Assembly: GCA_963762565.1 (NCBI GenBank)
Contig: CAVXLD010000009.1
Span: forward strand, 64,001-128,000
Length of the DNA: 64,000 nucleotides
Reading direction: 5' to 3'
Source of the DNA: an uncultured Verrucomicrobiae bacterium
GTDB taxonomy: Bacteria; Verrucomicrobiota; Verrucomicrobiia; Chthoniobacterales; JAFAMB01
Below the pieces are notes generated by a model. It worked only from the letters and a program-made list of their open reading frames with translations. It had not been told where the DNA came from and made no database searches. Each line of letters opens with the position of its first letter. The first letter of the stretch is position 1. The position numbers were made by a program, and so were the translations under genes. Below, piece by piece: positions 11,500-64,000 of the stretch.

Positions 11500-11997
11500 A
11501 TGACGATTCGGGAAGAAAACAAGGCTGACTTTCCGGAAATCGCGGCTCTAACGCAGGCGGCGTTCGGCGGCGACTATGAAGCAACGTTGATCGAGAAATT
11601 GCGTGCGGCTCACTTGGTGATCGTGTCGCTGGTGGCAGTCGAACAAGGCTCCGTGATTGGACATATTCCCTTCAGCGAACTGGAGGTTGAAGTAGATGGG
11701 AGACGAGTGACGGCAGCGGCATTGGCTCCCATGGCCGTCCGGCCAGATCGCCAGAGACGAGGTATTGGATCAAAGCTCGTGGAAACAGGATTGGACGGGC
11801 TGCGCGATCGCAGTTATGAGGCCGTCATCGTTCTCGGACACCCAGATTATTATCCGCGTTTCGGATTCACTCCTTCGTTGACGGCTTCTCTCGTTGCTCC
11901 GTTTAGCGGGAGGGCATTCATGGGTCTAGAGCTGATGTCGGGATCGCTGTCAGGGAGCAGAGGATCAGTAGAGTATCCGGAAGCGTTCGGCCTCTGA
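11500..11997 (+). CDS. GNAT acetyltransferase (YhbS-like)
   Basis: LAPMAVRPDRQRRGIG and VLGHPDYYPRFGF. Confidence 0.88.
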   Translation: MTIREENKADFPEIAALTQAAFGGDYEATLIEKLRAAHLVIVSLVAVEQGSVIGHIPFSELEVEVDGRRVTAAALAPMAVRPDRQRRGIGSKLVETGLDGLRDRSYEAVIVLGHPDYYPRFGFTPSLTASLVAPFSGRAFMGLELMSGSLSGSRGSVEYPEAFGL

Positions 11998-12008
11998 GAT
12001 TGGGCGAA

Positions 12009-12208
12009 TCCGTTCCGTAGGAACGGACTGACCTTAGCCAGGCAATTTATTGCCCAGGAGTCGCACAAACGGACCTCGTCCCGAAGGGTACGGTGTGATC
12101 CGCACGCCGTGCTCTGCCACCGGACACGCATTTGCACCTGCTTTTTAATCGTTTGAGTCGCATCCCAAGCAATAAATTGCCTGGCTACGATCGGTCGTCC
12201 CTCCGGGA
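12009..12208. repeat. REPIN-like palindromic element
   Basis: tagccaggcaatttattgcc ... gcaataaattgcctggcta inverted arms with short flanking hairpins. Confidence 0.65.
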
Positions 12209-12388: not shown

Positions 12389-12405
12389 TGGCATCATGGC
12401 TGCTT
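12389..12405 (+). promoter_or_regulatory. candidate sigma54 (-24/-12) promoter
   Basis: TGGCATCATGGCTGCTT (GG-N10-GC) preceded by an AT-rich tract; resembles the site at 58830. Confidence 0.5.
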
Positions 12406-48656: not shown

Positions 48657-50690
48657 ATGAAGCTACTCCACAACCCGTGTCTTCTTCAACGAAGCAAATT
48701 TTGCTGGGCGTCGCCACGAGCCCTAGCGGGCATCTCTTTACTTTTTTTGCAGCCTGCGTTTGGACAACAACCAACACCACAGACAAAGCCCGTTATTCCA
48801 CAAGCCGAACAGCCGACAGCAACTCCAAGTGCGGAGCCAATGCTGCCGACCGGGCCGAGAGAAGAAGCCAAGCCCTTGATCCCTGCGGCCGGTATTCCTA
48901 CTCCCAGTCCTACACCGACTCTCCCTACCGAGGTCCAATCCAAGCTGGATCAAGAGTTTGAGGAAGCAATGCAAGTGCATCGATTTCGCCCGAGCTTTTT
49001 TGCGCCGCTTTCGTTGCTCGATGCAGTACGTCTGACTCTCATGCAAAATTCGGACCTTCGCATGAGTACTGAAGACGCGCAGTCGGCCCGGGGTGCGCTG
49101 AAGAAAGCGACCGGAAATTACGATGCCCAATTCATCGGTGCTCTCGGTTATGTGAGGAGTCAGCTGTCCAGCTCGAACAGTAGTAACGCAGTCTCAGCTT
49201 TCTCAACGCAGAACCAAATTACTCAGGTCCTCACCCAGACGCTGACCCAAACCCTGACCCAGCTCAAAGCCAATCCGAGCGCCAACATCAGCCAGCTCGT
49301 GAGCATGAACGCCGCCCAATCCAGCGGGTCGGCATCAACGACTGACATACAAACCATTATCGCTACCGCAGACGCTTCCAAGACTTTGCGAAACGGGATA
49401 GACCTCAGCGTTGAGTACTCCCCCCAGTTCTTAAACAACCAGGATCAACTTTCGTGGCCTCCCGCGGTTCACCAAATCACTTTTTCAATGGGAATGTCTC
49501 TCACCAAATTTGGCACGTACTTCAATTCGGCTGACGAGACGGCTGCGCGTAAAGACTATCAAGCCGCCTTGTTGACTTTAGGGCACACCACCACCAAGGC
49601 AGTGCTCGACACGATACAGGCCTACTGGAAAGAGGCGGCAGCTCTCGAGAAGTTTTATTACGAGGACCGCACCTATCGGGTAAACGCCGCGGTACTTACC
49701 CTCACCGAGGAGCTGGCCAAGAATGGTGGCGTGGCTCAAACAGAGGTTCCGCTGGCTGTGGCTCACCGAGCGGAGGCCTTTGCGTCGCGATCGGCTGCGC
49801 TAATTGAGGTCTTGAATTCAGCGAAAGCCCTGGCGGCAACCTTAGGGTTAACTCGAGAGCAGTTGCGCTTCCTCCCGTTTCCGTCGGACCATTTCCCGGG
49901 CCTGAACGAAACCGCTCTCTCAAGAATCAATGAGTCTCAATTGATCGATGTGGCGCTGGGGCGACGTCTCGATCGGTTGGCCGCCATCGAGAAAGTCGAC
50001 GGAAAACGAGTGAAGTCCGACCATGCTAGAATCGATTTGCGGCCCGATGTTAAATTCAGTCTCGGGGGAGGCGCCGACATCGTTGACGGCCGGCAGACCG
50101 GAGCCGGTTCAGGCTATACCGTGGACCCGCAGGTTAATGCTAATGTCTCACTGAACTGGACGCCCGCCAACAATAAGAAAGAAGCCGCTTTGCTCGACGC
50201 GGAAGCAGATTTGGACAAGTCCCTTATCGGCCTGGACGATATTTCCAGAGAGATCGAGTTAAGCATTCAAAACGACATCTCCACAATGCAGGCTTACCAG
50301 GTCGAGATTGCCCAGTCAGATTTGGCCGTCGAAAACTACAAAAAAAGTATAACGGATCTGCGGGAGAAGTTCCGCGTGGGAGCCGCGACCCTCATCGACG
50401 TGTTTCAGTCCGTGGATCGACTCACCAGATCAGCAGAGTTGCTGGCGGATGCACAGTCGAGCATGGCGTCGACCATCGCTAAGCTTCGGTATGACACGGC
50501 GACAATGCTGACCAGAGGCACGGTTATGCGAACCCCGGGGTTTCCAAACCCGGTGGAGAAAATGCAGCTGAAAAGAGATGTTTTTGTTACTCTGCCGGAT
50601 TTGAACCAAGAGGCAGGTCCGACCGTAAAGGACCGGAATTATGAGCCTAATATCAAATACATCTCAGGCCACCCCCCCTGGCACCACTAA
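48657..50690 (+). CDS. TolC-family outer membrane efflux protein
   Basis: Signal and Pro-rich N-terminus, LSLLDAVRLTLMQN, REKFRVGAATLIDV; first gene of the export operon. Confidence 0.82.
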   Translation: MKLLHNPCLLQRSKFCWASPRALAGISLLFLQPAFGQQPTPQTKPVIPQAEQPTATPSAEPMLPTGPREEAKPLIPAAGIPTPSPTPTLPTEVQSKLDQEFEEAMQVHRFRPSFFAPLSLLDAVRLTLMQNSDLRMSTEDAQSARGALKKATGNYDAQFIGALGYVRSQLSSSNSSNAVSAFSTQNQITQVLTQTLTQTLTQLKANPSANISQLVSMNAAQSSGSASTTDIQTIIATADASKTLRNGIDLSVEYSPQFLNNQDQLSWPPAVHQITFSMGMSLTKFGTYFNSADETAARKDYQAALLTLGHTTTKAVLDTIQAYWKEAAALEKFYYEDRTYRVNAAVLTLTEELAKNGGVAQTEVPLAVAHRAEAFASRSAALIEVLNSAKALAATLGLTREQLRFLPFPSDHFPGLNETALSRINESQLIDVALGRRLDRLAAIEKVDGKRVKSDHARIDLRPDVKFSLGGGADIVDGRQTGAGSGYTVDPQVNANVSLNWTPANNKKEAALLDAEADLDKSLIGLDDISREIELSIQNDISTMQAYQVEIAQSDLAVENYKKSITDLREKFRVGAATLIDVFQSVDRLTRSAELLADAQSSMASTIAKLRYDTATMLTRGTVMRTPGFPNPVEKMQLKRDVFVTLPDLNQEAGPTVKDRNYEPNIKYISGHPPWHH

Positions 50691-51957
50691 AGACGGGGCG
50701 CCGCCGGAAAAAACTATCTTCCGAAAAGCCGCCTTGGAGCGGCTTTCTTCTCCGGAACAGCTCGATTATCTGATGTCGGTCACGTCGCCCGTCGGATGGC
50801 TGGCGCTTTCGGCATTGGCGGGCGTCCTTTTCCTGATTGTGCTTTGGGGGTTTCTTGGACGAATTCCCGATACGGTTTCAGGAAGCGGGATCTTGATTCG
50901 CGGCGGCGCGGTTTACGATGTTTCTGCCGGAAGCGATGGATTCATTACTCAGGTGCTGGTGAAAACGGGCGATCAAGTTAAGGCCGGCCAAGTCGTGGCA
51001 AAGATGAGCCAGTCGCAGTTGGAGCTAAAGATCAAGTCAAGCCAGGCCCAGCTAAAGGTCTTGCAGGGGCAGGACGCCGACATGACCAGTCGGGAGGATA
51101 AGAATGACGCCGCCGCGCTGGCGGACTACAAGAAACAAGATCAGGCATTGCTCGATGCCATTGCCAGCTACAAAGTTCAGATCGAAGCCGACCAGAGAGA
51201 ATTCGAAACTAAAGAAAGCCTACTGCAAAAAGGCTTAACCACGCAGGCTGAAGTCAACAAGGCGCGCGATGCCCTTTACGGCGTTAAGGGTCAGGTCGCG
51301 GATACTCAAGTCAAGGAGAGCCAGATTGGGACGGACGAAATCAAGTTAGCCCGCGACACTCAGACGTCTAGAAACGCGCGCCTGAAAGAGATCAACAGCA
51401 CGAAGCTGCAGCTCCAGGAATATATCGCGGAGCGAGATGCCGGAGTTCAAGTGGTTTGCAATTATTCGGGACGAGTGATCGAAAAGCTGGTTGAACGCGG
51501 CTCACCGGTTGTCGCAAAAGACCGGGTCATCACCGTCGAAGCGGAGGACGCGCCGATGCTGGCGGTAATCTATGTCCCCGCCGGAGAAGGGAAGAAAGTT
51601 CTGCCAAACCAGGAAATTCGGGTTTCACCTTCTACAGTGAAGGCTGAAGAGTATGGATTTATTCTCGGGAAAGTGACAAATGTTTCCTATTTCCCAAGCA
51701 CTCCGGAGGGCATGAAAGTTGTACTCAGAAACGAAGAGTTAGTGAAGGACCTTTCTACGACGGGAGCTCCTATTGAGATCACGGGCGACCTCTATCAAGA
51801 TCGGTCGACTAAGAGCGGGTACCGATGGTCTTCTTCGCAGGGACCATCAACGGGGATTTTCAGCGGCACGCTGGCCCAAGCTTCCATTGTGGTTGACCAG
51901 AAGCCGCCCATCGACTTCGTGATTCCGAAAATCAAAGAAATCCTCGGGCTCAAATGA
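50641..51957 (+). CDS. NHLM bacteriocin system secretion protein (HlyD family)
   Basis: IFRKAALERLSSPEQLD, PSTVKAEEYG and SGYRWSSSQGP. Confidence 0.92.
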   Translation: MSLISNTSQATPPGTTKDGAPPEKTIFRKAALERLSSPEQLDYLMSVTSPVGWLALSALAGVLFLIVLWGFLGRIPDTVSGSGILIRGGAVYDVSAGSDGFITQVLVKTGDQVKAGQVVAKMSQSQLELKIKSSQAQLKVLQGQDADMTSREDKNDAAALADYKKQDQALLDAIASYKVQIEADQREFETKESLLQKGLTTQAEVNKARDALYGVKGQVADTQVKESQIGTDEIKLARDTQTSRNARLKEINSTKLQLQEYIAERDAGVQVVCNYSGRVIEKLVERGSPVVAKDRVITVEAEDAPMLAVIYVPAGEGKKVLPNQEIRVSPSTVKAEEYGFILGKVTNVSYFPSTPEGMKVVLRNEELVKDLSTTGAPIEITGDLYQDRSTKSGYRWSSSQGPSTGIFSGTLAQASIVVDQKPPIDFVIPKIKEILGLK

Positions 51958-54137
51958 GCGACGCCATCCTGCCGTCCGACGGGGCGCTCCCCGCTCGCGT
52001 GATGACGCCGACGCTGCTGCAGATGGAGGCCGTGGAATGCGGGGCGGCGGCGTTGGGCATCATCATGCGGTATTACGATCTGTGGCGCCCGCTGGAGCAG
52101 CTCCGAATGGAATGCGGTGTGACCCGCGACGGCAGCAAAGCGAGTAATTTGTTGAAGGCGGCGCGACGTTTCGGGATGGAGGCGAACGGAATCCGTTGCG
52201 AGCTGAACGCCCTGCTAAAAACCGAACCACCGGTGATTCTCTATTGGAATTTCAATCACTTCCTGGTGTACGAGGGCGTTAGCCAAGGAAAAGTTCATTT
52301 GAACGACCCGGCTACCGGTCCTCGTCGAATTAGCATCGAAGAGCTAGAGGCCTCTTTCACCGGGGTAGTGCTGAAGATCAGCCGCGGTCCGGCCTTCGTA
52401 CCGGGCGGGGAAAAACCTAGCCTGTTAACTGCCTTGCGCCGGCGCATTTCGGGGTTCGAAATCGGTTTGAGTTTTGCGTTTTTAACCGGCTTGCTACTGA
52501 TCATTCCGAATATCGTGAACCCATCATTCACCCGGGTGTTCATCGACCAGTACCTGATCGGAGACAAGACGAGCATTCTCCGCCCATTGGTCGCCTGCAT
52601 GGCGGTCTCAATTGGCTTCATGATTTTGCTGCTTTGGTTGCAGCGCCATTTTCTATTGCGGTTGGAGACTAAGCTCGCCCTCACAACTTCCGCTAAGTTC
52701 TTTACCCATGTGGTCAAGCTGCCCATGGAATTCTATTCGCAGCGCTATGCGGGAGAAATCGGATCACGGGTGCTCATCAACGATAAGGTTGCCAAGGTTC
52801 TCTCCGATAAGCTGGTCACGACCGGGCTCGACCTGATGGCCTTGTTGTTCTTTGCCCTCGTCATGATCCAATATGATTTTTGGCTGACGTTGATCTGCGT
52901 CACCTTTGCCTTCCTCAATTTGATTGCGATCAAGGCCGTTCAACGGCCCCGGACCGATGCAAGCTTCCGGCTGCAGCAAGAACGCGGAAAGATGACCGGG
53001 ACTTCGATGAATGGCGTGCAAATGATTGAGACGCTGAAAGCGACCGGCGGTGAAGACGAGTTTTTTGGGCGGTGGTCAGGTTATCAGGCAAAGACTATCC
53101 GAGCGGAACAGGACATGGATTTATACGGTCAAACCTTGTCTGCCGTGCCTCCGCTGACCAAAGGGTTAATCACGGCCACGATCCTCGGGTTTGGTGGCTG
53201 GAGAGTCATGGATGGTCATTTAACCGTGGGTTTGTTAGTCGCCTTCCAATCATTGATGGATGGGTTCACTAAACCGATTACCTCCTTCGTGACATTCGGT
53301 AATGCGCTCCAGGAGACCGGCTCCGACTTGAACCGGCTCGACGACGTCTTGCGTTATGAAACCGATCCTATTTACGCCAGCGATCGCACGGTCAGCCCTG
53401 AGTTCAAGGCCACCATCAAATTGACCGGACTGCTCGAGGTCCGCAATCTGACCTTTGGGTTTAACCCATTAGGCGCCCCGTTAATTGAGAACCTCAGCTT
53501 CAGGGTCCGGCCGGGTGAGCGGGTCGCTTTGGTGGGCGGTAGCGGCAGCGGTAAATCGACCGTTTCCAAACTGGTAGCCGGCCTTTTCAAACCATGGAGC
53601 GGCGAGATCCTGTTCGACGGGGTTCCGCGAACGCAGATCCCTCGGCGTTTGCTGCACAATTCGATCGGTATGGTTGATCAGGATATCTTCATGTTCGAAG
53701 GCACGATTCGCGACAATCTGACCATGTGGAATCCGACAGTCCTCGACTCTCATATCACTCTAGCGTGTAAGGATTCTGCCATAGCGGAGGACGTAGCCAG
53801 CAGGCAAGGAGGTCTTTCCAGCACCGTTGCAGAAGGCGGGGTCAACTTTTCTGGTGGCCAGCGCCAAAGGCTCGAAATCGCTCGAGCCCTGGTGAATTCG
53901 CCAAGTTTTTTGATTCTGGACGAGGCCACTAGCGCGCTAGATCCAACCACTGAGGAAGTGATTGATCGCAACCTGCGTCGACGCGGCTGTTCCTGTTTAA
54001 TCGTAGCACACCGCCTAAGTACGATCCGTGACTGCGATGAGATCATCGTCCTCGAATATGGAAGAGTGGTAGAACGAGGGACGCACGAATCGATGAAAAA
54101 CGCAGGTGGCCCATATTCGAGGTTAATCAGTCATTAG
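51954..54137 (+). CDS. NHLM ABC transporter with C39 peptidase domain
   Basis: QMEAVECGAAAL, WNFNHF and NDPA (Cys/His/Asp triad); GGSGSGKS, FSGGQRQR and LDEATS. Confidence 0.95.
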   Translation: MSDAILPSDGALPARVMTPTLLQMEAVECGAAALGIIMRYYDLWRPLEQLRMECGVTRDGSKASNLLKAARRFGMEANGIRCELNALLKTEPPVILYWNFNHFLVYEGVSQGKVHLNDPATGPRRISIEELEASFTGVVLKISRGPAFVPGGEKPSLLTALRRRISGFEIGLSFAFLTGLLLIIPNIVNPSFTRVFIDQYLIGDKTSILRPLVACMAVSIGFMILLLWLQRHFLLRLETKLALTTSAKFFTHVVKLPMEFYSQRYAGEIGSRVLINDKVAKVLSDKLVTTGLDLMALLFFALVMIQYDFWLTLICVTFAFLNLIAIKAVQRPRTDASFRLQQERGKMTGTSMNGVQMIETLKATGGEDEFFGRWSGYQAKTIRAEQDMDLYGQTLSAVPPLTKGLITATILGFGGWRVMDGHLTVGLLVAFQSLMDGFTKPITSFVTFGNALQETGSDLNRLDDVLRYETDPIYASDRTVSPEFKATIKLTGLLEVRNLTFGFNPLGAPLIENLSFRVRPGERVALVGGSGSGKSTVSKLVAGLFKPWSGEILFDGVPRTQIPRRLLHNSIGMVDQDIFMFEGTIRDNLTMWNPTVLDSHITLACKDSAIAEDVASRQGGLSSTVAEGGVNFSGGQRQRLEIARALVNSPSFLILDEATSALDPTTEEVIDRNLRRRGCSCLIVAHRLSTIRDCDEIIVLEYGRVVERGTHESMKNAGGPYSRLISH

Positions 54138-54343: not shown

Positions 54344-57292
54344 ATGGCAGTCGTTGCCTCAGCTATCAGCAATGCACTCGTAGCAGCGGGACAGCTACAC
54401 CTTCTTCGTTTGAACGAAACCTTCGTGATCGAAGGGTCGGAGAACGTTTGGTTTATTGAGAGCGGCAAAGTGGACCTTTTCACGGTCCAGCTTCAGGGAA
54501 ACGATGCGACCGGACCGAGAACTCATTTCCTTTCCTTGGAAGCCGGGTCGCTGATCTTTGGGATGGATTTTGAAAGGCAGGAGCACGGATACTGCTTTCT
54601 TCTGACCGGTCAGGAAGGGACCCATCTAATCGAACTTGATCGGGAGAAAGTGAGGCGATTGGCTCGGGACCATGAATTTGCTGCGAGCATCGGCCAACTT
54701 ACCGATCAGTGGCTGGCTCATCTCTCCGCTAGCGTCACGCGAGATGTACGGCCACTTCCGAAAGCCGATGAGCTCTTGGTCGGAGGCAAGGAAATCTTGC
54801 TGCCGCGGGAGAAAATCGCGCGGGCCCGACGTGGCATCGTTTGGGTCCAGGTAATGCGAGGAGAAGCGTTGTATCTCGGAATGGAGGCCGTTTCCCGAAC
54901 GGGCGAAGGCGTGCCGGTCTTGCCTTTGTCGCCGGATACTTGGATCGAATCCTACGACGACAATCTCCTCTCCTGCTTTTCAACACCCACCGCGATCACT
55001 CAGGCCACATTTTGGATGGGCTTGGGTCTCTTCCATGAGGTGTTGTGCCAGTGTGAATTCATTAATAAGAAGCTCAGGATTGTCGATGATTTTAACCGGC
55101 TTCGCGCGCGGGAAGCATCGGGCTTGCGGTCGCGGGACACCGCCTTGCGCGAAATTGCTTCAGTATTGGAACCCCTCGCAGAAGGCCGTGACGGAGCTCT
55201 CCTCGATGCCTCGGCTAACCCGATACTGGCGGCTTGCCGGATAGTTGGTGAAGCCTGCGGAATCCCGGTTAAAGTCCCGCCTGACCTTCATCTGGTCGCC
55301 GACAAACTCGGAGCCATCGCTAAAGCATCGCGATTTCGCTACCGCGCGGTAGCGCTCCGAGGCGATTGGTGGGAGGTCGACCATGGCTCGCTTTTGGCCT
55401 ATCGCGAAGGAACTCGTGACCCGGTTGCGATCGTTAAGACCGGCCCCAAGAGCTACGAACTCGCAGACCCACGAACGCCGAACCGGATCCCAATAACTCC
55501 GGCGGTAGCAGCCACATTGGCACCCTTCGGTGTTTCATTTTATGCCCCCTTACCAGAGACCAAGTTAGGCGCTTGGGACCTGATTAAATTTGGATTGAGA
55601 GATTCTAAATCAGACCTTCGCACCATCCTTCTGATGGGGGTTTTGGTCGGATTATTAGGCATGGTAACGCCTTACTTCAGCGGTCAGATCTTCGATTCGA
55701 TTATCCCGTCCGCTGATCGCAGCCAGTTAACCCAGTTTGCGATCGGGTTATTTGCGGCAGCCCTGGCCACATTCGCTTTCGAGCTGACTCGTTCGATCGC
55801 CGTGCTCCGGCTCACCGGTAAGATGGACTACTCAGTTCAAGCCGGAGTCTGGGATCGCCTCCTGAACTTGCCGTCCACCTTCTTTCGAGAGTACACGGCC
55901 GGCGACCTCACCGACCGCGCGCTGGGCGTCGAACAGATTCGACAAGCGATCTCTCAATCCGGTACGCAGGCGATCGTCGGGGCAATCAGCGCTGTGATTA
56001 CGGGGATCTTTCTTTTCTCCTACAACCTCCAGATGGCGGCCATCGCTATCGCTCTGGTGGCGGTAGGAGTCCTGCTCCCCTGCTCTATCAATTTTCTGCA
56101 GTTACGCAATCAGCAACGCATGTTCAGAATGCGCGGGTTGATCACGGGCCTCGTTCTCCAGCTGATCAGCGGCGTCGCAAAGATCCGAGTTTCCGGAGCA
56201 GAAGACTCCGCATTCCGTGAATGGACTCGCAGATTTTCGGCTCAGAAGCGACTCGCCTTTCGGGTCGGATTCCTCGCCAACATTATCCAGGTCTTCAGCC
56301 GAGTATTTCCCGTCATTGCGACGGCGATCATTTTCTTCGCCTACGGCTGGCTACGAGACCAAGCCGCTGCGAACCATGATAAGTTCGGCATGACGACGGG
56401 CCAGTTCGTTGCCTTCAACGGCGTCTTCATGAATGTCCTCTCAAGCATGTTGGCGCTGAGCGGGGTTGTTCTCGATCTGCTGATCATCTTTCCGTTGTTT
56501 CAACGGCTACGGCCGATCATCCAAAGTGAACCTGAGATCGATGAAGCTAAAGCTCATCCTGGAGAATTGAGCGGTGAAGTGGAGGTTTATCATCTCTCAT
56601 TTCGCTACACCGAGGATGGGCCATTGATTCTGAAGGATGTCTCTCTCTTAATCCGACCAGGGGAATTCGTTGCGCTAGTAGGCGGCTCCGGATCTGGAAA
56701 ATCCACCCTGCTCCGTCTGCTCCTTGGCTTTGAGAAACCGGAGTCCGGAGCGATTCTTTACGATAGCCAGGAGCTCTCTTCTTTGGACCTGCGGGCGGTC
56801 CGGCGGCAAATCGGAGTCGTCCTGCAATCAAGCAAGCTGATGCCAACAGACATCTATCGGAACATCATCGGGTCGCATACAACTCTTACACTAAACGACG
56901 CTTGGGAGGCCGCCAGAATGGCTGGCCTCGATCGAGATATCAAAAATATGCCCATGGGCATGAACACCGTCGTATCCGAAGGTGGCGGCACGTTTTCGGG
57001 CGGTCAGCGGCAACGTCTTATGGTGGCGCGAGCGCTGGTGAATCGGCCTAGAATTGTTTTTTTTGACGAGGCAACCAGCGCGATGGATAACGAAACGCAA
57101 CGTACGGTCACTGAAAGCCTGGACGCCATGCAAGCAACTCGGATCGTTATCGCCCATCGATTGAGCACCATTATTAATGCGGACCGAATTTTCGTCCTGA
57201 AATATGGCGAGCTGGTTCAGACCGGTGCCTACACGGAATTGATGAATCAACCGGGGCCATTTGCCGATCTTGCCAAACGACAGCTGGCTTAA
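54344..57292 (+). CDS. NHLM ABC transporter permease/ATPase subunit
   Basis: cNMP-binding-like N-terminus, degenerate C39 (GDWWEVDHGSLL), WDRLLNLP, GGSGSGKS and FDEATS. Confidence 0.92.
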   Translation: MAVVASAISNALVAAGQLHLLRLNETFVIEGSENVWFIESGKVDLFTVQLQGNDATGPRTHFLSLEAGSLIFGMDFERQEHGYCFLLTGQEGTHLIELDREKVRRLARDHEFAASIGQLTDQWLAHLSASVTRDVRPLPKADELLVGGKEILLPREKIARARRGIVWVQVMRGEALYLGMEAVSRTGEGVPVLPLSPDTWIESYDDNLLSCFSTPTAITQATFWMGLGLFHEVLCQCEFINKKLRIVDDFNRLRAREASGLRSRDTALREIASVLEPLAEGRDGALLDASANPILAACRIVGEACGIPVKVPPDLHLVADKLGAIAKASRFRYRAVALRGDWWEVDHGSLLAYREGTRDPVAIVKTGPKSYELADPRTPNRIPITPAVAATLAPFGVSFYAPLPETKLGAWDLIKFGLRDSKSDLRTILLMGVLVGLLGMVTPYFSGQIFDSIIPSADRSQLTQFAIGLFAAALATFAFELTRSIAVLRLTGKMDYSVQAGVWDRLLNLPSTFFREYTAGDLTDRALGVEQIRQAISQSGTQAIVGAISAVITGIFLFSYNLQMAAIAIALVAVGVLLPCSINFLQLRNQQRMFRMRGLITGLVLQLISGVAKIRVSGAEDSAFREWTRRFSAQKRLAFRVGFLANIIQVFSRVFPVIATAIIFFAYGWLRDQAAANHDKFGMTTGQFVAFNGVFMNVLSSMLALSGVVLDLLIIFPLFQRLRPIIQSEPEIDEAKAHPGELSGEVEVYHLSFRYTEDGPLILKDVSLLIRPGEFVALVGGSGSGKSTLLRLLLGFEKPESGAILYDSQELSSLDLRAVRRQIGVVLQSSKLMPTDIYRNIIGSHTTLTLNDAWEAARMAGLDRDIKNMPMGMNTVVSEGGGTFSGGQRQRLMVARALVNRPRIVFFDEATSAMDNETQRTVTESLDAMQATRIVIAHRLSTIINADRIFVLKYGELVQTGAYTELMNQPGPFADLAKRQLA

Positions 57293-57348: not shown

Positions 57349-58497
57349 ATGAAGAGCGATAGCACGGCCAATGTAGTTCCGTTTCCAAACGCTACGGTCG
57401 ATCAGAAAATTGACGCCAACATGACGGAAATCGCCCTAGACATTCGGGCGAAGGCGCTGGAGAAATGGGGAGCAAATCAAGCCGTCGAAGTCGTGGGTTT
57501 CAGCCAGAAAATTAGGGACACGCTCGATAAGGTTCAGAAGTTCGCCAAGTTCAATCAAACGATCCTGATCACCGGTGAAAGCGGCGTTGGGAAGGAACTC
57601 TTTGCTAAAGCTTGCTATCTGCTCAGCGCTCGAATCAAGGCGCCTTTTGTCATCGTCAACTGCCCGCAATACAGCGAAGGTAATGTAACCGTCAGTGAGC
57701 TTTTTGGTCATGTGAAGGGCAGCTTCACCGGCGCGATTGCCGATCATAAGGGCCTGTTCGATGCTGCCGAAGGCGGCGCCGTTTTTCTCGATGAAGTCGG
57801 AGACCTTCCTCTCAATGCACAGACCATGCTGCTGCGAGCGCTCGCTGAAAAAGAAGTAAAGCCTTTGGGGTCGAACAAAACCTATTCCGTCGATGTCAGG
57901 ATCATTGCCGCTACCAATCGCCCACTACGGGATATGGCGGCGTGCGGTCAGTTCCGGCAAGACCTCTACTTTCGTCTCCGCTATTTTCCACTTGAAATCC
58001 CGGCGCTGCGCGATCGAGAGGAGGACTGGAAGGTCTTGATCAGTCATTTTGTCGATCGGCTAAACCAGGAATATAACCTGAAGAAAGCGTTCTCCCCTAT
58101 CTCCATCAAGTTCTTGGAGCGTTACCCCTGGCCGGGCAACGTCAGGGAGCTGAAAAGCATCGTCACCATTGGGTTCTCCATGGCCGACTCGAAGTACATC
58201 GAACCAGACCACTTTGTTAGCGACCTGCGACAGGCGAATTTGCCCGGTCCCGACACCGGTAAGAGCGAGTTATTCGAACATATGGTTGAGGACGGCGGAT
58301 CGTTTTGGGATGTCGTTCATCAGCCTTTTCTCAACCGAGATCTTAATCGAGCGCAGGCACGAGAGATTATTTCGCAGGGGCTATTGACCGCTAGAGGCAG
58401 CTACCGGCGGATGAGCGTTCTCTTCAATATTAAGCCGGATCAATATCAAAAATTCATGGACTTCCTCCGCCATCATCGGTTGAAGCCGGAGGAATAG
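57349..58497 (+). CDS. sigma54 enhancer-binding protein lacking a sensory domain
   Basis: GESGVGKE, GSFTGA, FLDEVG and WPGNVREL; only ~45 aa precede the AAA+ domain; atypical C-terminal HTH. Confidence 0.9.
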   Translation: MKSDSTANVVPFPNATVDQKIDANMTEIALDIRAKALEKWGANQAVEVVGFSQKIRDTLDKVQKFAKFNQTILITGESGVGKELFAKACYLLSARIKAPFVIVNCPQYSEGNVTVSELFGHVKGSFTGAIADHKGLFDAAEGGAVFLDEVGDLPLNAQTMLLRALAEKEVKPLGSNKTYSVDVRIIAATNRPLRDMAACGQFRQDLYFRLRYFPLEIPALRDREEDWKVLISHFVDRLNQEYNLKKAFSPISIKFLERYPWPGNVRELKSIVTIGFSMADSKYIEPDHFVSDLRQANLPGPDTGKSELFEHMVEDGGSFWDVVHQPFLNRDLNRAQAREIISQGLLTARGSYRRMSVLFNIKPDQYQKFMDFLRHHRLKPEE

Positions 58498-58695
58498 GCG
58501 TTTGGCGTTTGGCGTTCGGCGTTCGGCGTTCGGCGGGTTCGGGCGGGTGGCCCGGGAGGGATCCGCGTCCCCGCGATCCGTGGTTATCGAAGCCGAGGAC
58601 ATGCTGTAATCGCGGAACAAGAATATACCTCTAGGTGACGGCACGTCTTTCGCGGCGCGCAGGACGCGCGCCCTCCCTAACCGCCAACCGCCAAA
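58497..58695. repeat. GGAGGG-REP element with TTYGGCG heptamer arm
   Basis: Inverted near-identical copy of 12715-12874. Confidence 0.8.
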
Positions 58696-58700
58696 CGCGC

Positions 58701-58749
58701 AAAATGGAGCCCCCGTTCCATTTTCGAGAATCGACGTTCCATTTTCGAG
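58701..58749. promoter_or_regulatory. candidate upstream activator sequences
   Basis: CGTTCCATTTTCGAG at 58714 and 58735 (21-bp period) plus an inverted half-site AAAATGGA at 58701. Confidence 0.6.
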
Positions 58750-58829
58750 CCGGTTGCACACCGGCACAAAAACAGAGCATTTGACATAAATATCTTATAA
58801 TGAAAGACTTAAACCTCTATCCCCGATTG

Positions 58830-58846
58830 TGGCACGGCTGCTGCTT
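58830..58846 (+). promoter_or_regulatory. sigma54 (-24/-12) promoter of the precursor operon
   Basis: TGGCACGGCTGCTGCTT, a close match to TGGCACG-N4-TTGCW. Confidence 0.75.
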
Positions 58847-58900
58847 AATGGATTTGCAGACATGCCGGTGGCTGTCGAACTCCAGTAGAGGAGATTTGTA

Positions 58901-59215
58901 ATGGACCCCAACTCAACCGTCTCGCGTAAAGATATAAGGGAAGCCCTAGTGCGGGCGGCTTTGAAAGACGAGGCGTTTCGGGAGTCTCTTTTGGCGAACC
59001 CAAAGTTCGCAGTTGAGAGAGCGTTGGGTAGAACCTTACCGGATCGCCTACAAGTCGTTCTTTTACGAGAGACAGACAACCTCATGTATATCGTGTTGCC
59101 GAAGGATTTTCCTGATGACGCAGCACATCTCACGGATGCGGAACTCGAAAACGTGGCCGGAGGCTTCCTTAGCGCAGACAACAATATGCTGTCTCCTCAG
59201 GATCCGGCGTTCTGA
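58901..59215 (+). CDS. NHLP (nitrile hydratase-like) leader peptide family protein
   Basis: RAALKDEAFRESLLANPK, YIVLP and LTDAELENVAGG followed by the 16-aa core FLSADNNMLSPQDPAF. Confidence 0.9.
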   Translation: MDPNSTVSRKDIREALVRAALKDEAFRESLLANPKFAVERALGRTLPDRLQVVLLRETDNLMYIVLPKDFPDDAAHLTDAELENVAGGFLSADNNMLSPQDPAF

Positions 59216-59269
59216 GAATTCCAGTCCGATTAACACCAACGCAAACCAGAAAAATAAAAAACCACTACC

Positions 59270-59392
59270 ATGAGCGAAGAAATCCAGAAACCCGAGACGG
59301 TCAGCGACGAACAACTTGAAGATGTTGCCGGCGGTACGTTCGACAATAACTCCTGCAACGCCCTGATCGAGGCCACCGTTATCGTTGGGTAA
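59270..59392 (+). CDS. lanthipeptide precursor copy 1 (40 aa)
   Basis: MSEEIQKPETVSDEQLEDVAGG-TFDNNSCNALIEATVIVG*; double-Gly leader. Confidence 0.9.
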   Translation: MSEEIQKPETVSDEQLEDVAGGTFDNNSCNALIEATVIVG

Positions 59393-59471
59393 GACATTCG
59401 TCTTCCTTCCGATACCGGTTCAGATCAACTGCACACCCAACCCAACCCAAACCCACCAACTAGACCACCAT

Positions 59472-59594
59472 ATGAGCGAAGAGATCCAGAAGCCTGAGAC
59501 TGTTAGCGACGAGCAACTCGAAGATGTTGCCGGCGGCACGTTCGACAATAACTCCTGCAACGCCCTGATCGAAGCCACCGTCATCGTTGGGTAA
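59472..59594 (+). CDS. lanthipeptide precursor copy 2 (40 aa)
   Basis: Same peptide as copy 1, with 10 synonymous differences. Confidence 0.9.
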   Translation: MSEEIQKPETVSDEQLEDVAGGTFDNNSCNALIEATVIVG

Positions 59595-59674
59595 GACATT
59601 CGTCTTCCTTCCGATACCGGTTCAGATCAACTGCACACCCAACCCAACCCAAAAACCACCAACTAGACCACCAT

Positions 59675-59797
59675 ATGAGCGAAGAGATCCAGAAGCCTGA
59701 GACTGTTAGCGACGAGCAACTCGAAGATGTTGCCGGCGGTACGTTCGACAATAACTCCTGCAACGCCCTGATCGAAGCCACCGTCATCGTTGGGTAA
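59675..59797 (+). CDS. lanthipeptide precursor copy 3 (40 aa)
   Basis: Same peptide; one synonymous difference from copy 2. Confidence 0.9.
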   Translation: MSEEIQKPETVSDEQLEDVAGGTFDNNSCNALIEATVIVG

Positions 59798-59874
59798 GAC
59801 ATTCGTCTTCCTTCCGATACCGGTTTAGATCAGCTGCACTGCCAACCCAACCAACCCACCAACCAAATCATAAT

Positions 59875-59997
59875 ATGAGCGAAGAGATCCAGAAGCCTGA
59901 AAACGTTAGCGATGAGCAACTCGAAGATGTTGCTGGCGGCACGTTCGATAACAACTCGTGCAACGCCCTGATTGAGGCCACTGTCATCGTTGGATAA
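59875..59997 (+). CDS. lanthipeptide precursor copy 4 (40 aa)
   Basis: Same core; a single T10N change in the leader and many synonymous differences. Confidence 0.9.
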   Translation: MSEEIQKPENVSDEQLEDVAGGTFDNNSCNALIEATVIVG

Positions 59998-60021
59998 CAC
60001 GATAGGCCAGAATTAAGTAAT

Positions 60022-60058
60022 GCCGCCGCCGGATTTCTTCGGCGGCGGCTTTATATTT
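60022..60058 (+). terminator. intrinsic terminator / stabilising hairpin after the precursor array
   Basis: gccgccgccgga-tttc-ttcggcggcggc followed by tttatattt. Confidence 0.75.
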
Positions 60059-60064
60059 GCTGCT

Positions 60065-63000
60065 ATGACGAGGGGATCGATCGCCTCGATATTGGCGCGC
60101 AGCGCTCCATTGCAAGAACGTCTGGCTGCTACCGATCCTCAGCAGAATCCCGGAGAGACACCCGCCCTTTTGGAGTGTTGGCGAGGCGCCTTGGATACCG
60201 CAACTCACCGGCTGTTCGATGAGCGGCTTGCGTCGCTCGGCCTTTCCTTGGAACAGGCTCGACTTCAGCTTGGGATGCTTGGGCGCGAACCAAATCGAGA
60301 AAGTAAATGCTTTGATGCATTCTTGAAGGCTTTCTCCTACCCGCCTTACCCCGGCTTTGTTGCTCTCAAACTCCCGTTTGTACCCCTCTGGGCGCCCGCA
60401 GCGTCCTTCGCGCATGACCTGGTCTTCCGAGGCGCAGAGGATAGCCGGCTCATTTCTGAGGATGCTTCTCGAAATTTGTCGCAATCGTTACTGGAGGAGC
60501 TCTGTCGCGTCGCCGCCGAGCCCGTTTATCTCTTGTTTCAAGAAGAGCGTGCCAAGGGGCAGTCGTTTGAGGAATTTGTCAGGCTATCCTTGAAATCGGA
60601 CGGAGAACGGATCTTTGGTCGCTTCCCGGCCCTTGCTCGTTGCCTCCTTGTTGTATTCAGGAACTGGATTAGTGGCACTCAGCTCTTTATGAGGCGGCTT
60701 GCGGCCGATTGGGCAGAGTTCCATGCGTTCCTTCCTGAACTGAAAAGCGATGATCCGATCCAGTCGATTTCGACAGGTTTTTCGGACCGGCACGACGACG
60801 GTCTTCAAGTCTTGCTTGTCGAGTTTTCGGACGGCTCCCGGGTGCTTTATAAACCCAAGGACATGTCGTTGGAGGCGCGGCTGCCCCAAATCAACGAATG
60901 GCTAGACGCGGAAGGTTTCCCGTTCAAACTGAGATTTCCGGTTTCGCTGCAAAAGGAAGGCTACGGATGGTCCGCATTCATCCGGCCGGAGCCCTGTCAC
61001 TCAATCGAAGAGGTAAAAACGTTTTTCGAACACGCCGGGGCTCTCCTCTGCCTCGCCCACACATTGAACGGCAAGGACCTTCTTCTAGAAAACATCGTCG
61101 CCTGTGGCAGCAATCCGGTTCCGATCGATCTCGAAACTTTCTTTCAGCCGCAAGCCCAAAGAGCGGATCGGATCGGTTCGCCTCCCGATCGAGATCCGCC
61201 AGAATGCCTGCGCCGCAGTTCCGTTCTCGAAACCGGAATGCTCCCGTATTGGCACATCGCCGGACTGGATATTCCCTGCGATCTCAGCGGCTTAAGCGGT
61301 TCCAAGGAAAATCTGTCCCAGATCAGGCAGCCCTACTGGGACGCCGTGAACACGGATCAGATGAAGCGTTCCGATCGCGGGTATAAGTCACCGGAGAAAG
61401 CTAACCGGCCCGTTTACCATGGTGCATTTCAACATCCGCGAGACTATGAGGGCGCGCTGGTCGATGGCTTCTGCCAGCTTTATCGGTTTCTGTGCGTCCG
61501 AAAGGAATCATTTATCAATTTCCTGCAAACGTTTTCGAACGCTCGAACGCGACTGATCTTCCGATCAACCCAAATGTACGGGTTGCTAGCGAAGCAATCG
61601 TTAAGAGCCGAAAACCTGACGGATGGAATTCTGCGGAGCTTGGTATTTGAAACCCTCTATCGGCCGGCGCTTAAGGGTAATTATCTATCCAACTTTCTCA
61701 AGGCGATCCTGGATCGGGAGGTACGCTGTTTGGAAAACCTCGATATCCCGAGGTTCTATATTCGCCTCGATTCGGACGCGCTGACGATCGATCACGGGCT
61801 TGAGATCCCGCATTTCCTTGTGGAATCACCCTTGGAAACAGTCAGGCAGCGAGTACTGGCGATGTCCTCAGAAATCGAAGAATATCATGTGGAAAATCTC
61901 CAGGAATCGCTCAGAAGGCAGCCCAGAATGGTTGGCCCGAGTCAGACCCGTGGCGAGATCCTCGACCTCGCTGGCAACCTGGTTGCCGAGATTCTGCGTC
62001 GGAGCAGAAATGACCCTGCAAAAAATCTGTGGCCACTGCCAACCTTCGTGAAGGAGCCTCTTCCCGAGCATGAACGTGACGGGCTCTATTTGGGAGATAT
62101 CGGAGTCGCGATATTTCTGGCGGCTTGGGATTGCGCGGGAGGGACTTCCATTTCAAAAGAACCGCTCGATACGTTGTTCTTGCGGTTGCAAGGTCGTCGA
62201 TTCCCACAAAACATCCCTCTAGGCATTTGCAACGGGCTTGGTTCATACGCCTATGGTTGTCTAGTCCTGGCAAAGCTCACCAAGCAGACCCGGTGGCTCG
62301 AGCTTTCCGACCGGTTTGGGGAAGAGATTTCCGTCGGACGTCTGACATCAGAAGCGGACCCCGATATCGTCTACGGTTTGGCGGGAGCAATTGTTTGCCT
62401 GGTTCGGCTACACCAAGCGACGAAAGACCAGAGTTTCCTGGAACGGGCACAGCAAGGTTTGGACATCCTTAGCTCCAGATTTATACACGGAACAGGGTGG
62501 GTCCGACCGAACGGAGAAGCTTTGGTCGGTTTCGCCCATGGCTCTGCAGGGATCGCTTTTGCTGCCCTGACGTTGGCCGAGGCGTCAAAAGAGGAGCGGT
62601 GTTTAGCACTGGCAAGAGATGCTTTTGCACTAGATCGTGGATTTTACTCGGAATCGGAAAAAAATTGGATGTCCACTACTCAATGCGAGGGAAATGCGTT
62701 GCGAGCTTGGTGCAGCGGTTCGCCTGGCATGACGCTAGCAAGACTAACAGCTCGGCGTCTCATGGAAGATCCGGTCTTAGGCGCCGAAATCGAACGGACG
62801 TGGCGGAGCTTTCCCGATCTGCTCGGCCTCGATCACTGGTGCTGCGGCAATTTAGGACTGGTAGAGCTTCTCTGGCATGCCGCCCGAAAACTCGACCGGG
62901 AAGACCTGCGCACGAAAGCCGACACTTTGCTTGGCAAAACTGTTCAGCGAGCGCTCAGGAGTGCGTTTTCTAGGTTCAATCCCGAGTTGGGCCACAACTT

Positions 63001-63106
63001 CTGTTTCCAACCCAGCCTGTTCCGCGGGTCCGCCGGTTTGGGTTATACGTTGCTGCGGTTTCTGCACCCCGATAAACTGCCTTGTATCCTCGCATTTGAG
63101 GTGTAG
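60065..63106 (+). CDS. lanM: class II lanthipeptide synthetase LanM
   Basis: SDRH, YKPKD, ENIVA..PVPIDLET, RLIFRSTQMY and DIPRF; cyclase GFAHG, WCSG and WCCG; likely start MTRGS (60065). Confidence 0.92.
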   Translation: MTRGSIASILARSAPLQERLAATDPQQNPGETPALLECWRGALDTATHRLFDERLASLGLSLEQARLQLGMLGREPNRESKCFDAFLKAFSYPPYPGFVALKLPFVPLWAPAASFAHDLVFRGAEDSRLISEDASRNLSQSLLEELCRVAAEPVYLLFQEERAKGQSFEEFVRLSLKSDGERIFGRFPALARCLLVVFRNWISGTQLFMRRLAADWAEFHAFLPELKSDDPIQSISTGFSDRHDDGLQVLLVEFSDGSRVLYKPKDMSLEARLPQINEWLDAEGFPFKLRFPVSLQKEGYGWSAFIRPEPCHSIEEVKTFFEHAGALLCLAHTLNGKDLLLENIVACGSNPVPIDLETFFQPQAQRADRIGSPPDRDPPECLRRSSVLETGMLPYWHIAGLDIPCDLSGLSGSKENLSQIRQPYWDAVNTDQMKRSDRGYKSPEKANRPVYHGAFQHPRDYEGALVDGFCQLYRFLCVRKESFINFLQTFSNARTRLIFRSTQMYGLLAKQSLRAENLTDGILRSLVFETLYRPALKGNYLSNFLKAILDREVRCLENLDIPRFYIRLDSDALTIDHGLEIPHFLVESPLETVRQRVLAMSSEIEEYHVENLQESLRRQPRMVGPSQTRGEILDLAGNLVAEILRRSRNDPAKNLWPLPTFVKEPLPEHERDGLYLGDIGVAIFLAAWDCAGGTSISKEPLDTLFLRLQGRRFPQNIPLGICNGLGSYAYGCLVLAKLTKQTRWLELSDRFGEEISVGRLTSEADPDIVYGLAGAIVCLVRLHQATKDQSFLERAQQGLDILSSRFIHGTGWVRPNGEALVGFAHGSAGIAFAALTLAEASKEERCLALARDAFALDRGFYSESEKNWMSTTQCEGNALRAWCSGSPGMTLARLTARRLMEDPVLGAEIERTWRSFPDLLGLDHWCCGNLGLVELLWHAARKLDREDLRTKADTLLGKTVQRALRSAFSRFNPELGHNFCFQPSLFRGSAGLGYTLLRFLHPDKLPCILAFEV

Positions 63107-63219
63107 GAATCAATCGTTTTTCGGGCTGCTGCTCGCGCTCGTCGTCGTCCTCGTCCTCCGAGCAGAACCCAGTTAGTTTACGGGGCTGATCTAATCGAGC
63201 GCTGTGGCGGAGCCCACGA

Positions 63220-63454
63220 CTGGAGGGAGCCGCTTTGTAGCATTGAAGCTCCATCGGTTGGCAGACAGGCGGCTCCCGAGAACGTCTCCACGTGCCGCAG
63301 TTCTATCGCCGTCGTGTCTCTCCGCCGTACCAAACCAAATGCGATGGGAAATTGCTGCCGCTGGGCAATTCCCGGGAGCCGCTTGTCTACCCCGAAAACT
63401 TTCGGTGGCTGCCAACTTGCATAACTGCCAAGCTACAAAGCGGCTCCCCTCCAG
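63220..63454. repeat. GGAGCCGC-family MITE/REPIN
   Basis: ctggagggagccgctttgtagc...gctacaaagcggctcccctccag. Confidence 0.75.
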
Positions 63455-63479
63455 GCCCTGGGCGCCAAACGAGCCCTCC

Positions 63480-64000
63480 ATGGAACTTATCTACACCCTA
63501 CACCCCACACCGACGCCCGAAGAGCGGTATCGCATCGTTGATCCGCTGATCGCTTACAACGAGGCACAGGCAGGGCCAAGAAACTCGAAGGAATTCGCTT
63601 TTTTTGTGCGTTCTGAAACAGGTGAGCTCGTCGGAGGGTTATTGGGCTCGACTCACTTCAACCATTTCTTTGTCTCAGCGATTTTCATCGACCAGGAGTT
63701 TCGACGCGAAGGGATTGGGCGTGAACTGATCAGACGCGCAGCAGCTTTGGCGCTTGAGCGAGGGTGCGATATAATCTACCTGGACACCTTCGATTTCCAG
63801 GCACCCGGTTTCTACGAGAAACTCGGGTTCAAAGTTTTCGGGGCGCTGAACGACTATCCGACGGGCCACCGACGTCTCTATTTCGTGAAACGACTTGGTG
63901 CAGGCGGCGAGGCCCAAGGACGCACTACAAAACTGAACTTCACCCTTCAACCCCAGCCAACGCCGGACGAAAAAAAGCGCATCATTGATCCCTTGGTCGC
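63480..64000 (+). CDS. tandem-domain GNAT acetyltransferase (partial, runs off the window)
   Basis: MELIYTLHPTPTPEERYRIVDPLIAYN...FRREGIG...LDTFDFQAPGFYEKLGF, then a second repeat starting PTPDEKKRIIDPLV; no stop, so absent from the ORF track. Confidence 0.85.
   Translation, partial: MELIYTLHPTPTPEERYRIVDPLIAYNEAQAGPRNSKEFAFFVRSETGELVGGLLGSTHFNHFFVSAIFIDQEFRREGIGRELIRRAAALALERGCDIIYLDTFDFQAPGFYEKLGFKVFGALNDYPTGHRRLYFVKRLGAGGEAQGRTTKLNFTLQPQPTPDEKKRIIDPLV

Follow-up and report, generated by a model that had tools for sequence, protein, structure and literature searches.

The window analysed here, a stretch of 64,000 nt from an uncultured Verrucomicrobiae bacterium (assembly GCA_963762565.1, contig CAVXLD010000009.1, positions 64,001 to 128,000), carries on its + strand a complete class II lanthipeptide locus with genes for an exporter, an activator, precursor peptides and the lanthipeptide synthetase LanM. 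Two kinds of precursor are encoded side by side. The gene at 58901-59215 (+) specifies a protein of 104 aa that is a member of the family of nitrile hydratase leader peptides (NHLP), and it is followed by four short-leader lanA genes. The gene order is promoter, NHLP gene, four lanA genes, hairpin and lanM, with the NHLP gene as the first of the precursor unit. Here we describe the anatomy, conservation and genomic context of this NHLP gene and consider whether it encodes a peptide in its own right, one that cannot form lanthionine.

The NHLP protein consists of an 88-aa leader ending in LTDAELENVAGG and a 16-aa core, FLSADNNMLSPQDPAF. A first-pass annotation, made by a model from the letters alone, had already singled it out as the only full NHLP gene of the window, with a 16-aa core free of Cys, and the open reading frame (ORF) and the profile hit agree on this. 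Residues 9-88 match the TIGR03793 leader_NHLP model with 71.8 bits (cut-off 50.9, E 3e-20); no other protein of the window exceeds this cut-off, and in the whole genome just one other does. Its profile matched the solved leader structures 9cjx (E 2.6e-8) and 8tb1. The homology ends at the Gly-Gly, between ...ENVAGG and FLS..., and the metal-binding Cys cluster of nitrile hydratase is absent. Among 34 aligned NHLP homologues, D79, L82, A86 and G88 are invariant and G87 is nearly so. The AlphaFold2 model is of low confidence (56.1); its three helices, hairpin and floppy tail agree with published NHLP leaders and say no more than that. Recognition of a C39 substrate calls for Gly-Gly at -2/-1 together with hydrophobic positions -4, -7 and -12 (PMC12537861), a rule with which V-4, L-7 and L-12 of the NHLP leader comply.

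The core contains two Ser residues (Ser3 and Ser10), and the entire 104-aa protein lacks Cys. The NHLP product is therefore unable to form lanthionine, as had been proposed. A LanA-type core, with Cys plus Ser or Thr, is missing from this gene and likewise from 34 of 35 homologous genes. Typical of the NHLP family, though not strictly defining for it, is a hypervariable core with much Cys, Ser and Thr, which the window NHLP does not have; Cys-free cores were found in 18 of 52 single-domain NHLP representatives. Searches of 400 sampled genomes of the phylum with the NHLP profile returned only G000 and five distant NHLP holders (6/401), and a second NHLP profile (A3) returned the same genomes, adding no context for the NHLP family of contig 5 described below. 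In 93 of the 148 nearest NHLP representatives (P0086-P0232) at least two NHLP stretches stood in one predicted protein of 170-400 aa; these may be tandem genes called as one, or true fusions.

The four lanA genes form four tandem repeat units of ~203 nt (59270-59997). Each holds a 40-aa ORF with a 22-aa leader, MSEEIQKPE(T/N)VSDEQLEDVAGG, and the core TFDNNSCNALIEATVIVG with a single Cys, in which T1, S6, C7 and T15 are found; lanM lies 25-70 nt 3'. Judged by the double-Gly leader, the core with Cys and Ser/Thr and the adjacent LanM gene, the short genes encode class II LanAs. A double-Gly leader of 22 aa is a complete class II LanA leader, and leaders as short as this are the norm. Residues V-4, L-7 and V-12 fit the C39 substrate rule here as well. 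DNN is present in both NHLP and LanA cores, as had been noted from the letters.

The short leader had been taken for a match to the last helix of the NHLP leader. The likeness as such stood, with 7 of 12 residues identical between LTDAELENVAGG and VSDEQLEDVAGG, but its specificity did not: the short-leader end shares 8 of 12 residues with MSAEQLQSVAGG, the Nif11 leader end in the other lanthipeptide cluster of the same genome. The resemblance between short leader and NHLP is thus real but not specific to NHLP. The short leaders reach TIGR03793 at model positions 61-77 only (E 0.1) and fit the NF038167 double-Gly leader model better (E 2-4e-5, below its cut-off). According to Haft 2010 (PMC2887384), NHLP, Nif11 and class II bacteriocin leaders resemble one another in the ~13 residues that precede the Gly-Gly, and the last ~13 residues of the leader studied here follow this pattern. 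The shared LxxVAGG segment is a generic double-glycine export and cleavage signal. A search for longer proteins bearing a short LanA yielded P0057 and P0233 only (P and L numbers denote proteins and loci). P0057, on one metagenome contig of 2168 nt, joins NHLP residues 1-46 in frame to an entire short LanA with the same sequence as that of the window; a deletion variant or a chimera of the assembly may lie behind it.

Conservation of the pairing was surveyed from both sides. The NHLP protein, used as bait, retrieved 58 homologues, of which 33 were aligned with the query (34 rows); 31 of these rows have Cys-free cores, the exceptions being P0022, P0042 and the fusion P0057. Ten loci came from named Verrucomicrobiota and Chthoniobacterales metagenome-assembled genomes. 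In all eight that extend downstream, the NHLP gene is followed by one to four short-leader genes with one Cys and then by lanM; L022 and L027, which end just 3' of the NHLP gene, were left out of this count. The short precursor, a bait free of NHLP bias, gave 47 metagenome loci, of which 13 with less than 450 nt upstream were uninformative. NHLP was present in 26 of the 34 informative loci, and eight with at least 450 nt upstream were without it. Two of the latter (L042 and L066) have their own sigma-54 element at the start and end after the third short gene, a layout that continues in L023 and L063 with a second promoter and an NHLP gene. Another (L053) is a lone degenerate copy without LanM, four (L074, L075, L078 and L079) are other peptide families with the leader motif alone in common, and L051 is an unclear case. 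Among 35 NHLP genes, which include the identical pairs L063/L064 and L024/L068, the ORF is intact in all and 34 cores, of 15-23 aa, are Cys-free.

The pairing is hence retained in homologous clusters and the Cys-free core is the rule, contrary to the possibility that homologues normally carry Cys and that a decayed copy is present here. These surveys do not set a leader in trans apart from the other readings offered in the first-pass annotation. Synteny with the NHLM exporter was seen in seven of the ten genome loci; L022 and L030 show the exporter end only and L028 none. The TolC-like gene keeps its place in L021, L024-L027 and L029. In L028 (5015-6277 and flanks) the cassette of NHLP gene, four lanA genes and lanM lies near a DDE transposase gene, with no exporter within 10 kb upstream; the LarC-like and transaldolase genes downstream match the flank of L026, and a LarC-like gene follows in L021, too.

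Cores are uniformly 16 aa long in 15 clade-A genes and 17 aa long in eight clade-B genes. Pairwise Nei-Gojobori ratios of nonsynonymous to synonymous divergence (dN/dS) were 0.25 (clade A) and 0.135 (clade B) for the core and 0.054 (clade A) and 0.124 (clade B) for the leader, rough values at a dS of ~0.5-1.4, which is near saturation in clade A. The NHLP core appears to be under purifying selection and, for this reason, not to be a decaying copy; its fixed length and the invariant Gly-Gly would fit a processed, exported product. A LanA core is its probable ancestor: the N-terminus (FL-S/D-x-D/N-N) looks like that of LanA cores, the NHLP gene of L069 bears the Cys core of the short LanA beside it (LLDTNIQTQSNTCLSQLSSVVQL, next to a short gene that starts LLDTNIQTQN, the DNA being nearly identical there), and P0209 is an NHLP with the LanA-like core LADKANCKATLSSIINISAG. 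Nothing convincing was seen when the other frames behind the NHLP core were inspected for a frameshifted remnant of a Cys core.

Comparison of loci revealed that the genes of the locus do not diverge together. Between the window and L023, amino acid identities are 82% for the second ABC exporter subunit (ABC2), 83% for the sigma-54 enhancer-binding protein (EBP, the activator), 83% for NHLP and 37% for LanM. Very similar values separate L033 from L024 (82%, 86%, 92% and 37%), whereas the window and L033 agree in all four (91%, 85%, 82% and 84%). Overall, LanM identity is 36-37% between loci with NHLPs 80-92% identical. Spearman coefficients of NHLP identity were 0.91 with EBP, 0.75 with ABC2 and 0.39 with LanM, descriptive figures only, as the sequences are related. 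By these contrasts, NHLP stays with the backbone of exporter and activator while the LanM/lanA module is exchanged, with a breakpoint right 3' of the NHLP gene. The cores tell of the same independence: L024 and L025 share the NHLP core FLSAENNTFLGPDSSL and have different LanA cores, and the NHLP core of L067, FLNPQANVLNIQDPI, has no Ser, Thr or Cys. On these grounds neither a specific two-peptide partnership nor dehydration is the conserved function.

The first 240 residues of LanM are the least conserved, with 13-38% identity between LanM types. In DprM this N-terminal region docks the NHLP, with high selectivity for its own NHLP (Vidya et al. 2025, PMC12537861). The LanM of the window matches LicM2 and CylM; its HMMER alignment with CylM begins at LanM residue 188, so that the length of an NHLP-docking loop as in DprM cannot be judged from it. 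A complex prediction of the dehydratase part of LanM (residues 1-640) with NHLP, run without controls, scored 0.02 against a mark of 0.32, which counts neither for nor against binding.

A lone Cys-free NHLP recurs where no leader is short. Contig 5 of the same genome holds a prochlorosin-like cluster (L031, 578000-597900) with a LanM of ~900 aa, ~19 precursors that have full-length Nif11 leaders and two-Cys cores, and one NHLP with the 13-aa Cys-free core GSFPLADLFKGYI. The family of this NHLP shows 22 Cys-free cores among 23, with lengths of 12-15 aa and a conserved F-x-G-Y-x at the end. No NHLM exporter is adjacent to the contig-5 cluster, and the pattern used gave no sigma-54 element there. 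One Nif11 precursor there has a short Cys-free core (GISFSAEEVSSL).

The first ~420 residues of ABC2 (54344-55603) form a cytoplasmic extension with a mean column identity of 77% and an invariant Cys298 at a helix start; residues 1-300 matched no Pfam family even at E 10. The AlphaFold2 model of residues 1-420 is poor (pLDDT 53.6), and Foldseek returned no match to it at E <= 0.001, the best (E 0.019) being a C39-like domain of the HlyB type. There are weak leads to a domain resembling those that bind cyclic nucleotides (cNMP-binding-like), followed by a C39-like domain, and a folded leader might dock on the extension.

Transcriptional signals frame the precursor genes. The sigma-54 pattern matched twice in the 64 kb, against 0.15 matches expected, once as TGGCAC-N5-CTGCT ahead of the NHLP gene; the other match is at 12389-12404 (TGGCATCATGGCTGCT). 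In 31 of 32 loci an element of this kind precedes the NHLP gene by 57-76 nt. With the -24 GG/-12 GC element and an AAA+ enhancer-binding protein both encoded here, the operon is probably sigma-54-dependent. The activator has ~45 residues ahead of its AAA+ domain and, in a PspF-like layout, neither receiver nor sensor domain. Of 24 loci that were scanned, 13 have at least one CGTTCCATTTTCGAG box at -183 to -190, and 12 of these have the pair. No box was found in the loci without an adjacent activator (clade B), nor in L030, L071 and L072, although the latter three have an adjacent activator. The distant L071 is the sole locus with a kinase/regulator pair downstream: an NtrC-type sigma-54 response regulator and a HAMP/HisKA kinase are encoded 3' of its LanM gene (9485-12129), and a sensor-less activator is encoded upstream as well.

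The GC-rich hairpin before lanM is present in 13 of 13 loci despite sequence divergence, usually with a T-rich tract next to it. Contigs of RNA libraries (four soil libraries from four studies) cover the NHLP and lanA genes, and the interval from the NHLP stop to lanA1 is bridged by X16 (58835-59344) and X17 (58849-59310); such contigs denote presence, which is proof of neither transcription nor a single transcript. No cover was found on 60028-60600, the 5' end of lanM, or on 58548-58769, which is at most a weak hint of transcripts running from promoter to hairpin. A GTTYGGC-rich stretch 3' of the activator gene (58474-58547) is hit in all four runs by RNA contigs with many different flanks; it looks like a dispersed repeat and not like part of the operon.

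Table 1. Features of the lanthipeptide locus on the analysed stretch
Feature	Position	Strand	Evidence or remark
TolC-like outer-membrane factor of exporter	48657..50690	+	Pfam OEP E 2e-15; TIGR01844 match weak
NHLM HlyD-type membrane fusion protein	50641..51957	+	TIGR03794 323.6 bits (cut-off 156)
NHLM ABC exporter subunit 1 (ABC1), N-terminal C39 peptidase	51954..54137	+	TIGR03796 1033.8 bits (cut-off 853)
NHLM ABC exporter subunit 2 (ABC2)	54344..57292	+	TIGR03797 900 bits (cut-off 709), from residue 292
Sigma-54 enhancer-binding protein (EBP, activator)	57349..58497	+	Pfam Sigma54_activat PF00158, residues 49-215, E 1e-58; AAA_lid_14
Two direct CGTTCCATTTTCGAG boxes, 21 nt apart	58714..58749	+	candidate activator binding site
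Sigma-54 -24/-12 promoter element TGGCACGGCTGCTGCT	58830..58845	+	71 nt 5' of NHLP start codon
NHLP-leader precursor	58901..59215	+	leader 58901-59164, core 59165-59212 (FLSADNNMLSPQDPAF), stop 59213-59215
Short-leader class II LanA, copy 1	59270..59392	+	
Short-leader LanA, copy 2	59472..59594	+	ATG inside a 69-aa TTG ORF, 59385-59594
Short-leader LanA, copy 3	59675..59797	+	
Short-leader LanA, copy 4	59875..59997	+	leader T10N
GC-rich 12-bp hairpin and T-rich tract	60022..60059	+	candidate terminator/attenuator between precursor genes and lanM
LanM class II lanthipeptide synthetase	60065..63106	+	TIGR03897 591.5 bits (cut-off 304); Pfam DUF4135, LANC_like
GNAT acetyltransferase, truncated by window end	63204..63998	+	Pfam Acetyltransf_1

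Some gene models and neighbours deserve a comment. For LanM, the ATG at 60065 (MTRGSIASILAR...) is the likelier start, because the ATG of the longest ORF, at 60020, falls inside the hairpin. The GNAT gene is probably only ~150 codons long, with its start at about 63470. A small GNAT gene 3' of lanM is found in clade-A loci with any LanM type (L021, L023-L025, L033, L052, L063 and L068), and no match to it was obtained in the clade-B loci L026, L028 and L029. Its role in the cluster is uncertain; the cores of the window have no Lys, so a lipidating role as in GNAT-modified RiPPs, peptides made by the ribosome and modified after translation, is not obvious. Upstream, ~5 kb 5' of the exporter genes, a stand-alone LanC-like ORF (42583-43845, +) scores 133 bits with the cyclase part of the LanM model. 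Beside it lies a gene resembling nonribosomal peptide synthetases, with A-T-reductase organization (44219-47743, -).

In the scheme that we favour, the sigma-54 promoter and the PspF-like activator, acting on the two upstream boxes, would drive the NHLP gene and the four lanA genes as one unit, which would end at a leaky hairpin ahead of lanM. LanM would equip the short-leader LanAs, whose 22-aa leader would be complete and canonical, with a single (methyl)lanthionine ring, and the NHLP precursor would not be a productive substrate for it. The C39 domain of ABC1 (Pfam Peptidase_C39, residues 19-144), predicted to cleave after Gly-Gly, would cut both kinds of precursor, and the products would leave through ABC1/ABC2-HlyD-TolC (NHLM). 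The long NHLP leader would be matched to this machine and not to LanM. We give an even chance to the resulting proposal, that the NHLP gene encodes a separately exported, conserved, linear peptide of ~16 aa that is incapable of forming lanthionine and is co-transcribed with the lanA genes. A diffusible signal or an accessory factor of the exporter/regulator backbone would be the most likely function of the 16-mer. A separate peptide or signal had been listed as an alternative before; it fits best of the readings, with the reservation that no sensor was found in the window.

Several observations speak against the exported 16-mer. Its cleavage, export and activity are predictions, and the limits given above for the RNA contigs and the dN/dS values apply to co-transcription and core selection, respectively. 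The window encodes neither a sensor kinase nor a receptor; no kinase or receiver domain turned up in the genes scanned between 44219 and 63998, and the adjacent activator is itself sensor-less. The arrangement of three-component peptide-pheromone systems, with kinase and response regulator beside a double-Gly gene, is accordingly not seen in the window. In clade A the leader is under stronger constraint than the core, which fits a leader-centred function, too. The NHLP gene is strictly single-copy and always accompanies a lanA-lanM operon, even in L028 without an adjacent exporter. Finally, this LanM lineage has apparently had NHLP-borne substrates (L069 and P0209), and the rejection of truncated leaders by DprM (PMC12537861) leaves room for a role of NHLP in trans.

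That role was the central proposal of the first-pass annotation: a natural split leader, in which the folded NHLP protein, as leader or chaperone, binds LanM in trans and activates it toward the short-leader LanAs. The activation of LanM enzymes by a leader supplied in trans is known from in vitro work and provides a mechanistic precedent, but there it is a laboratory construct for leaderless cores, while the cores of the window carry complete leaders of their own. The conserved pairing, the presence of exactly one NHLP per operon, the low dN/dS of the leader (0.054) and the occurrence of the LanA core family on NHLP leaders (L069 and P0209) all suit a split leader, as does DprM, which needs the N-terminal NHLP bundle and rejects leaders with deletions of residues 1-65 or 1-74 (PMC12537861). 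On the other hand, a short double-Gly leader is normal for class II LanAs and its motif generic (PMC2887384). LanMs only 36-37% identical stand beside highly similar NHLPs, so that NHLP tracks the exporter and the EBP rather than LanM, and the poorly conserved LanM N-terminus contrasts with the high selectivity of DprM. The lone NHLP is also found beside full-length Nif11 LanAs, and from its place before the attenuator it would be transcribed along with the substrates and not with the enzyme. A constrained core and an invariant Gly-Gly are not needed by a pure trans-activator. We therefore consider activation of LanM in trans very unlikely.

The folded leader could instead serve the exporter, docking on NHLM as an adaptor or primer and opening or assembling the ABC-HlyD-TolC channel, with the 16-aa tail as only an export handle; it might dock at the C39-like domain of ABC2, and the short LanAs would then use the channel. 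NHLP identity does follow ABC2 and the backbone and not LanM, exporters constrain NHLP leaders more than tailoring enzymes do according to Haft 2010 (PMC2887384), and the conserved ABC2 extension, with its leads to C39-like (HlyB type) and cNMP-binding-like domains, offers a place to dock. Yet these matches are all weak and the model behind them poor, priming of PCAT-type exporters by a second peptide is without precedent, the cassette of L028 persists without an adjacent exporter, and the core is more conserved within clades than a mere handle would need. We regard an adaptor as distinctly unlikely. The broader view, that a folded NHLP, made in the amounts of a precursor, is a natural trans-acting leader or adaptor inside the producer, on either the exporter (for example at the C39-like domain of ABC2) or LanM, licensing the processing and export of LanAs that have lost an NHLP domain of their own, with the 16-aa tail mainly as a handle for cleavage and recycling and L069 as an evolutionary intermediate, seems unlikely as well, and an intracellular, leader-centred role as a whole deserves no higher estimate than that.

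Other readings concern the core or the position of the gene. LanM might dehydrate the two Ser residues of the NHLP core to give a partner of the ring peptide, as in a two-component lantibiotic, and it has been suggested that Cys-free NHLPs beside LanM stay dehydrated (Haft 2010, PMC2887384). Against such a dehydrated-only partner, which the first-pass annotation had also considered, stand the orthologous cores without Ser or Thr (L067 and P0014), the constant NHLP core of L024 and L025 beside differing LanAs, and the untouched Ser/Thr residues of the Cys-free DprE6 in the presence of DprM (PMC12537861). A two-component lantibiotic, which has two different, co-evolving LanAs with Cys and usually two LanMs, is not what the genes suggest either, with a single LanM and a Cys-free NHLP core, and the idea is in all likelihood wrong. 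Hardly more than a slight chance attaches to an intracellular regulator, in which the NHLP protein, or its leader freed after export, would modulate the sensor-less activator and couple transcription to export capacity. The activator has no regulatory domain, like PspF-type proteins controlled by a partner protein, the identity correlation of NHLP with EBP is the highest of all pairs, and NHLP is the first gene behind the promoter of the activator; but the correlation may mirror shared ancestry alone, and clade-B loci retain NHLP and the sigma-54 promoter without an adjacent activator or boxes. It is improbable that the gene is a relic, once an NHLP-type LanA, now without its Cys and slowly decaying, held in place only by its position between promoter and lanA. 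The full Cys core of the L069 NHLP gene, the truncated cores (10 and 12 aa) of the nearest relatives P0039 and P0040, and the resemblance of NHLP and LanA core N-termini would suit a relic. A relic is difficult to reconcile with an ORF intact in all 35 genes, a core length fixed within clades, dN/dS of 0.05-0.25 over a dS of 0.5-1.4, and an invariant cleavage motif.

A separately exported linear peptide has a counterpart in known systems. The peptides that induce class II bacteriocin loci, plantaricin A among them, are short, unmodified double-Gly peptides that are encoded together with the bacteriocins and leave by the same C39 ABC exporter. The loci of the plantaricin A type encode a histidine kinase and a response regulator nearby, whereas the window has only the sensor-less sigma-54 activator, and they differ further from the 88-aa folded NHLP leader and the diderm, Verrucomicrobiota-like host considered here. 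Plantaricin A is named among the double-Gly class II bacteriocins in the account of NHLP and Nif11 precursors with their NHLM exporter (Haft 2010, PMC2887384). The systems described in that account share with the window the TIGR03793 Gly-Gly leader, the adjacent TIGR03794/03796/03797 exporter and a LanM alongside, and just over 60% (under two thirds) of the NHLPs beside LanM contain Cys. The window differs from them in that its NHLP is single-copy with a conserved, not hypervariable, Cys-free core and is joined to multi-copy short-leader LanAs in one sigma-54 operon.

The closest biochemical comparison is the dpr cluster with DprM and DprE1-E7 (Vidya et al. 2025, PMC12537861), which has in common with the window a class II LanM, NHLP precursors and cores with at most one Cys. 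Cys-free DprE6 is left unmodified by DprM and the Gly-Gly is preceded by hydrophobic residues at -4, -7 and -12, as here. All dpr substrates have a full NHLP leader and truncated ones fail, while the Cys-containing substrates of the window have 22-aa leaders and its sole NHLP is the Cys-free one. The dpr cluster also includes radical SAM and RRE genes, and none were noted among the cluster genes scanned here. Prochlorosin-type clusters resemble the contig-5 cluster, in which one LanM faces many Nif11-leader precursors; that cluster has the NHLP with the 13-aa Cys-free core in addition, and the window uses short leaders, not Nif11 leaders.

The components, and Cys-free NHLPs near LanM, are thus already known. 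Word searches of open-access full texts retrieved no description of the mixed-leader operon, the backbone behaviour of NHLP, the selection on its core or the sigma-54 control. In genome mining, the pipelines drop those ORFs of LanM clusters that have no Cys (Walker 2020, PMC7268733), and conserved products that are not lanthipeptides go unseen as a result. The locus presented here is a clean and widespread natural case in soil Verrucomicrobiota-like genomes of a long NHLP and canonical short leaders in one operon, with an NHLP gene that behaves as part of the exporter/regulator backbone while LanM/LanA modules swap. As a RiPP operon under sigma-54 control, it offers a defined promoter, candidate activator boxes and an attenuator. 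The function of the NHLP leader in export versus modification, and Cys-free NHLP peptides as signals, can now be tested directly.

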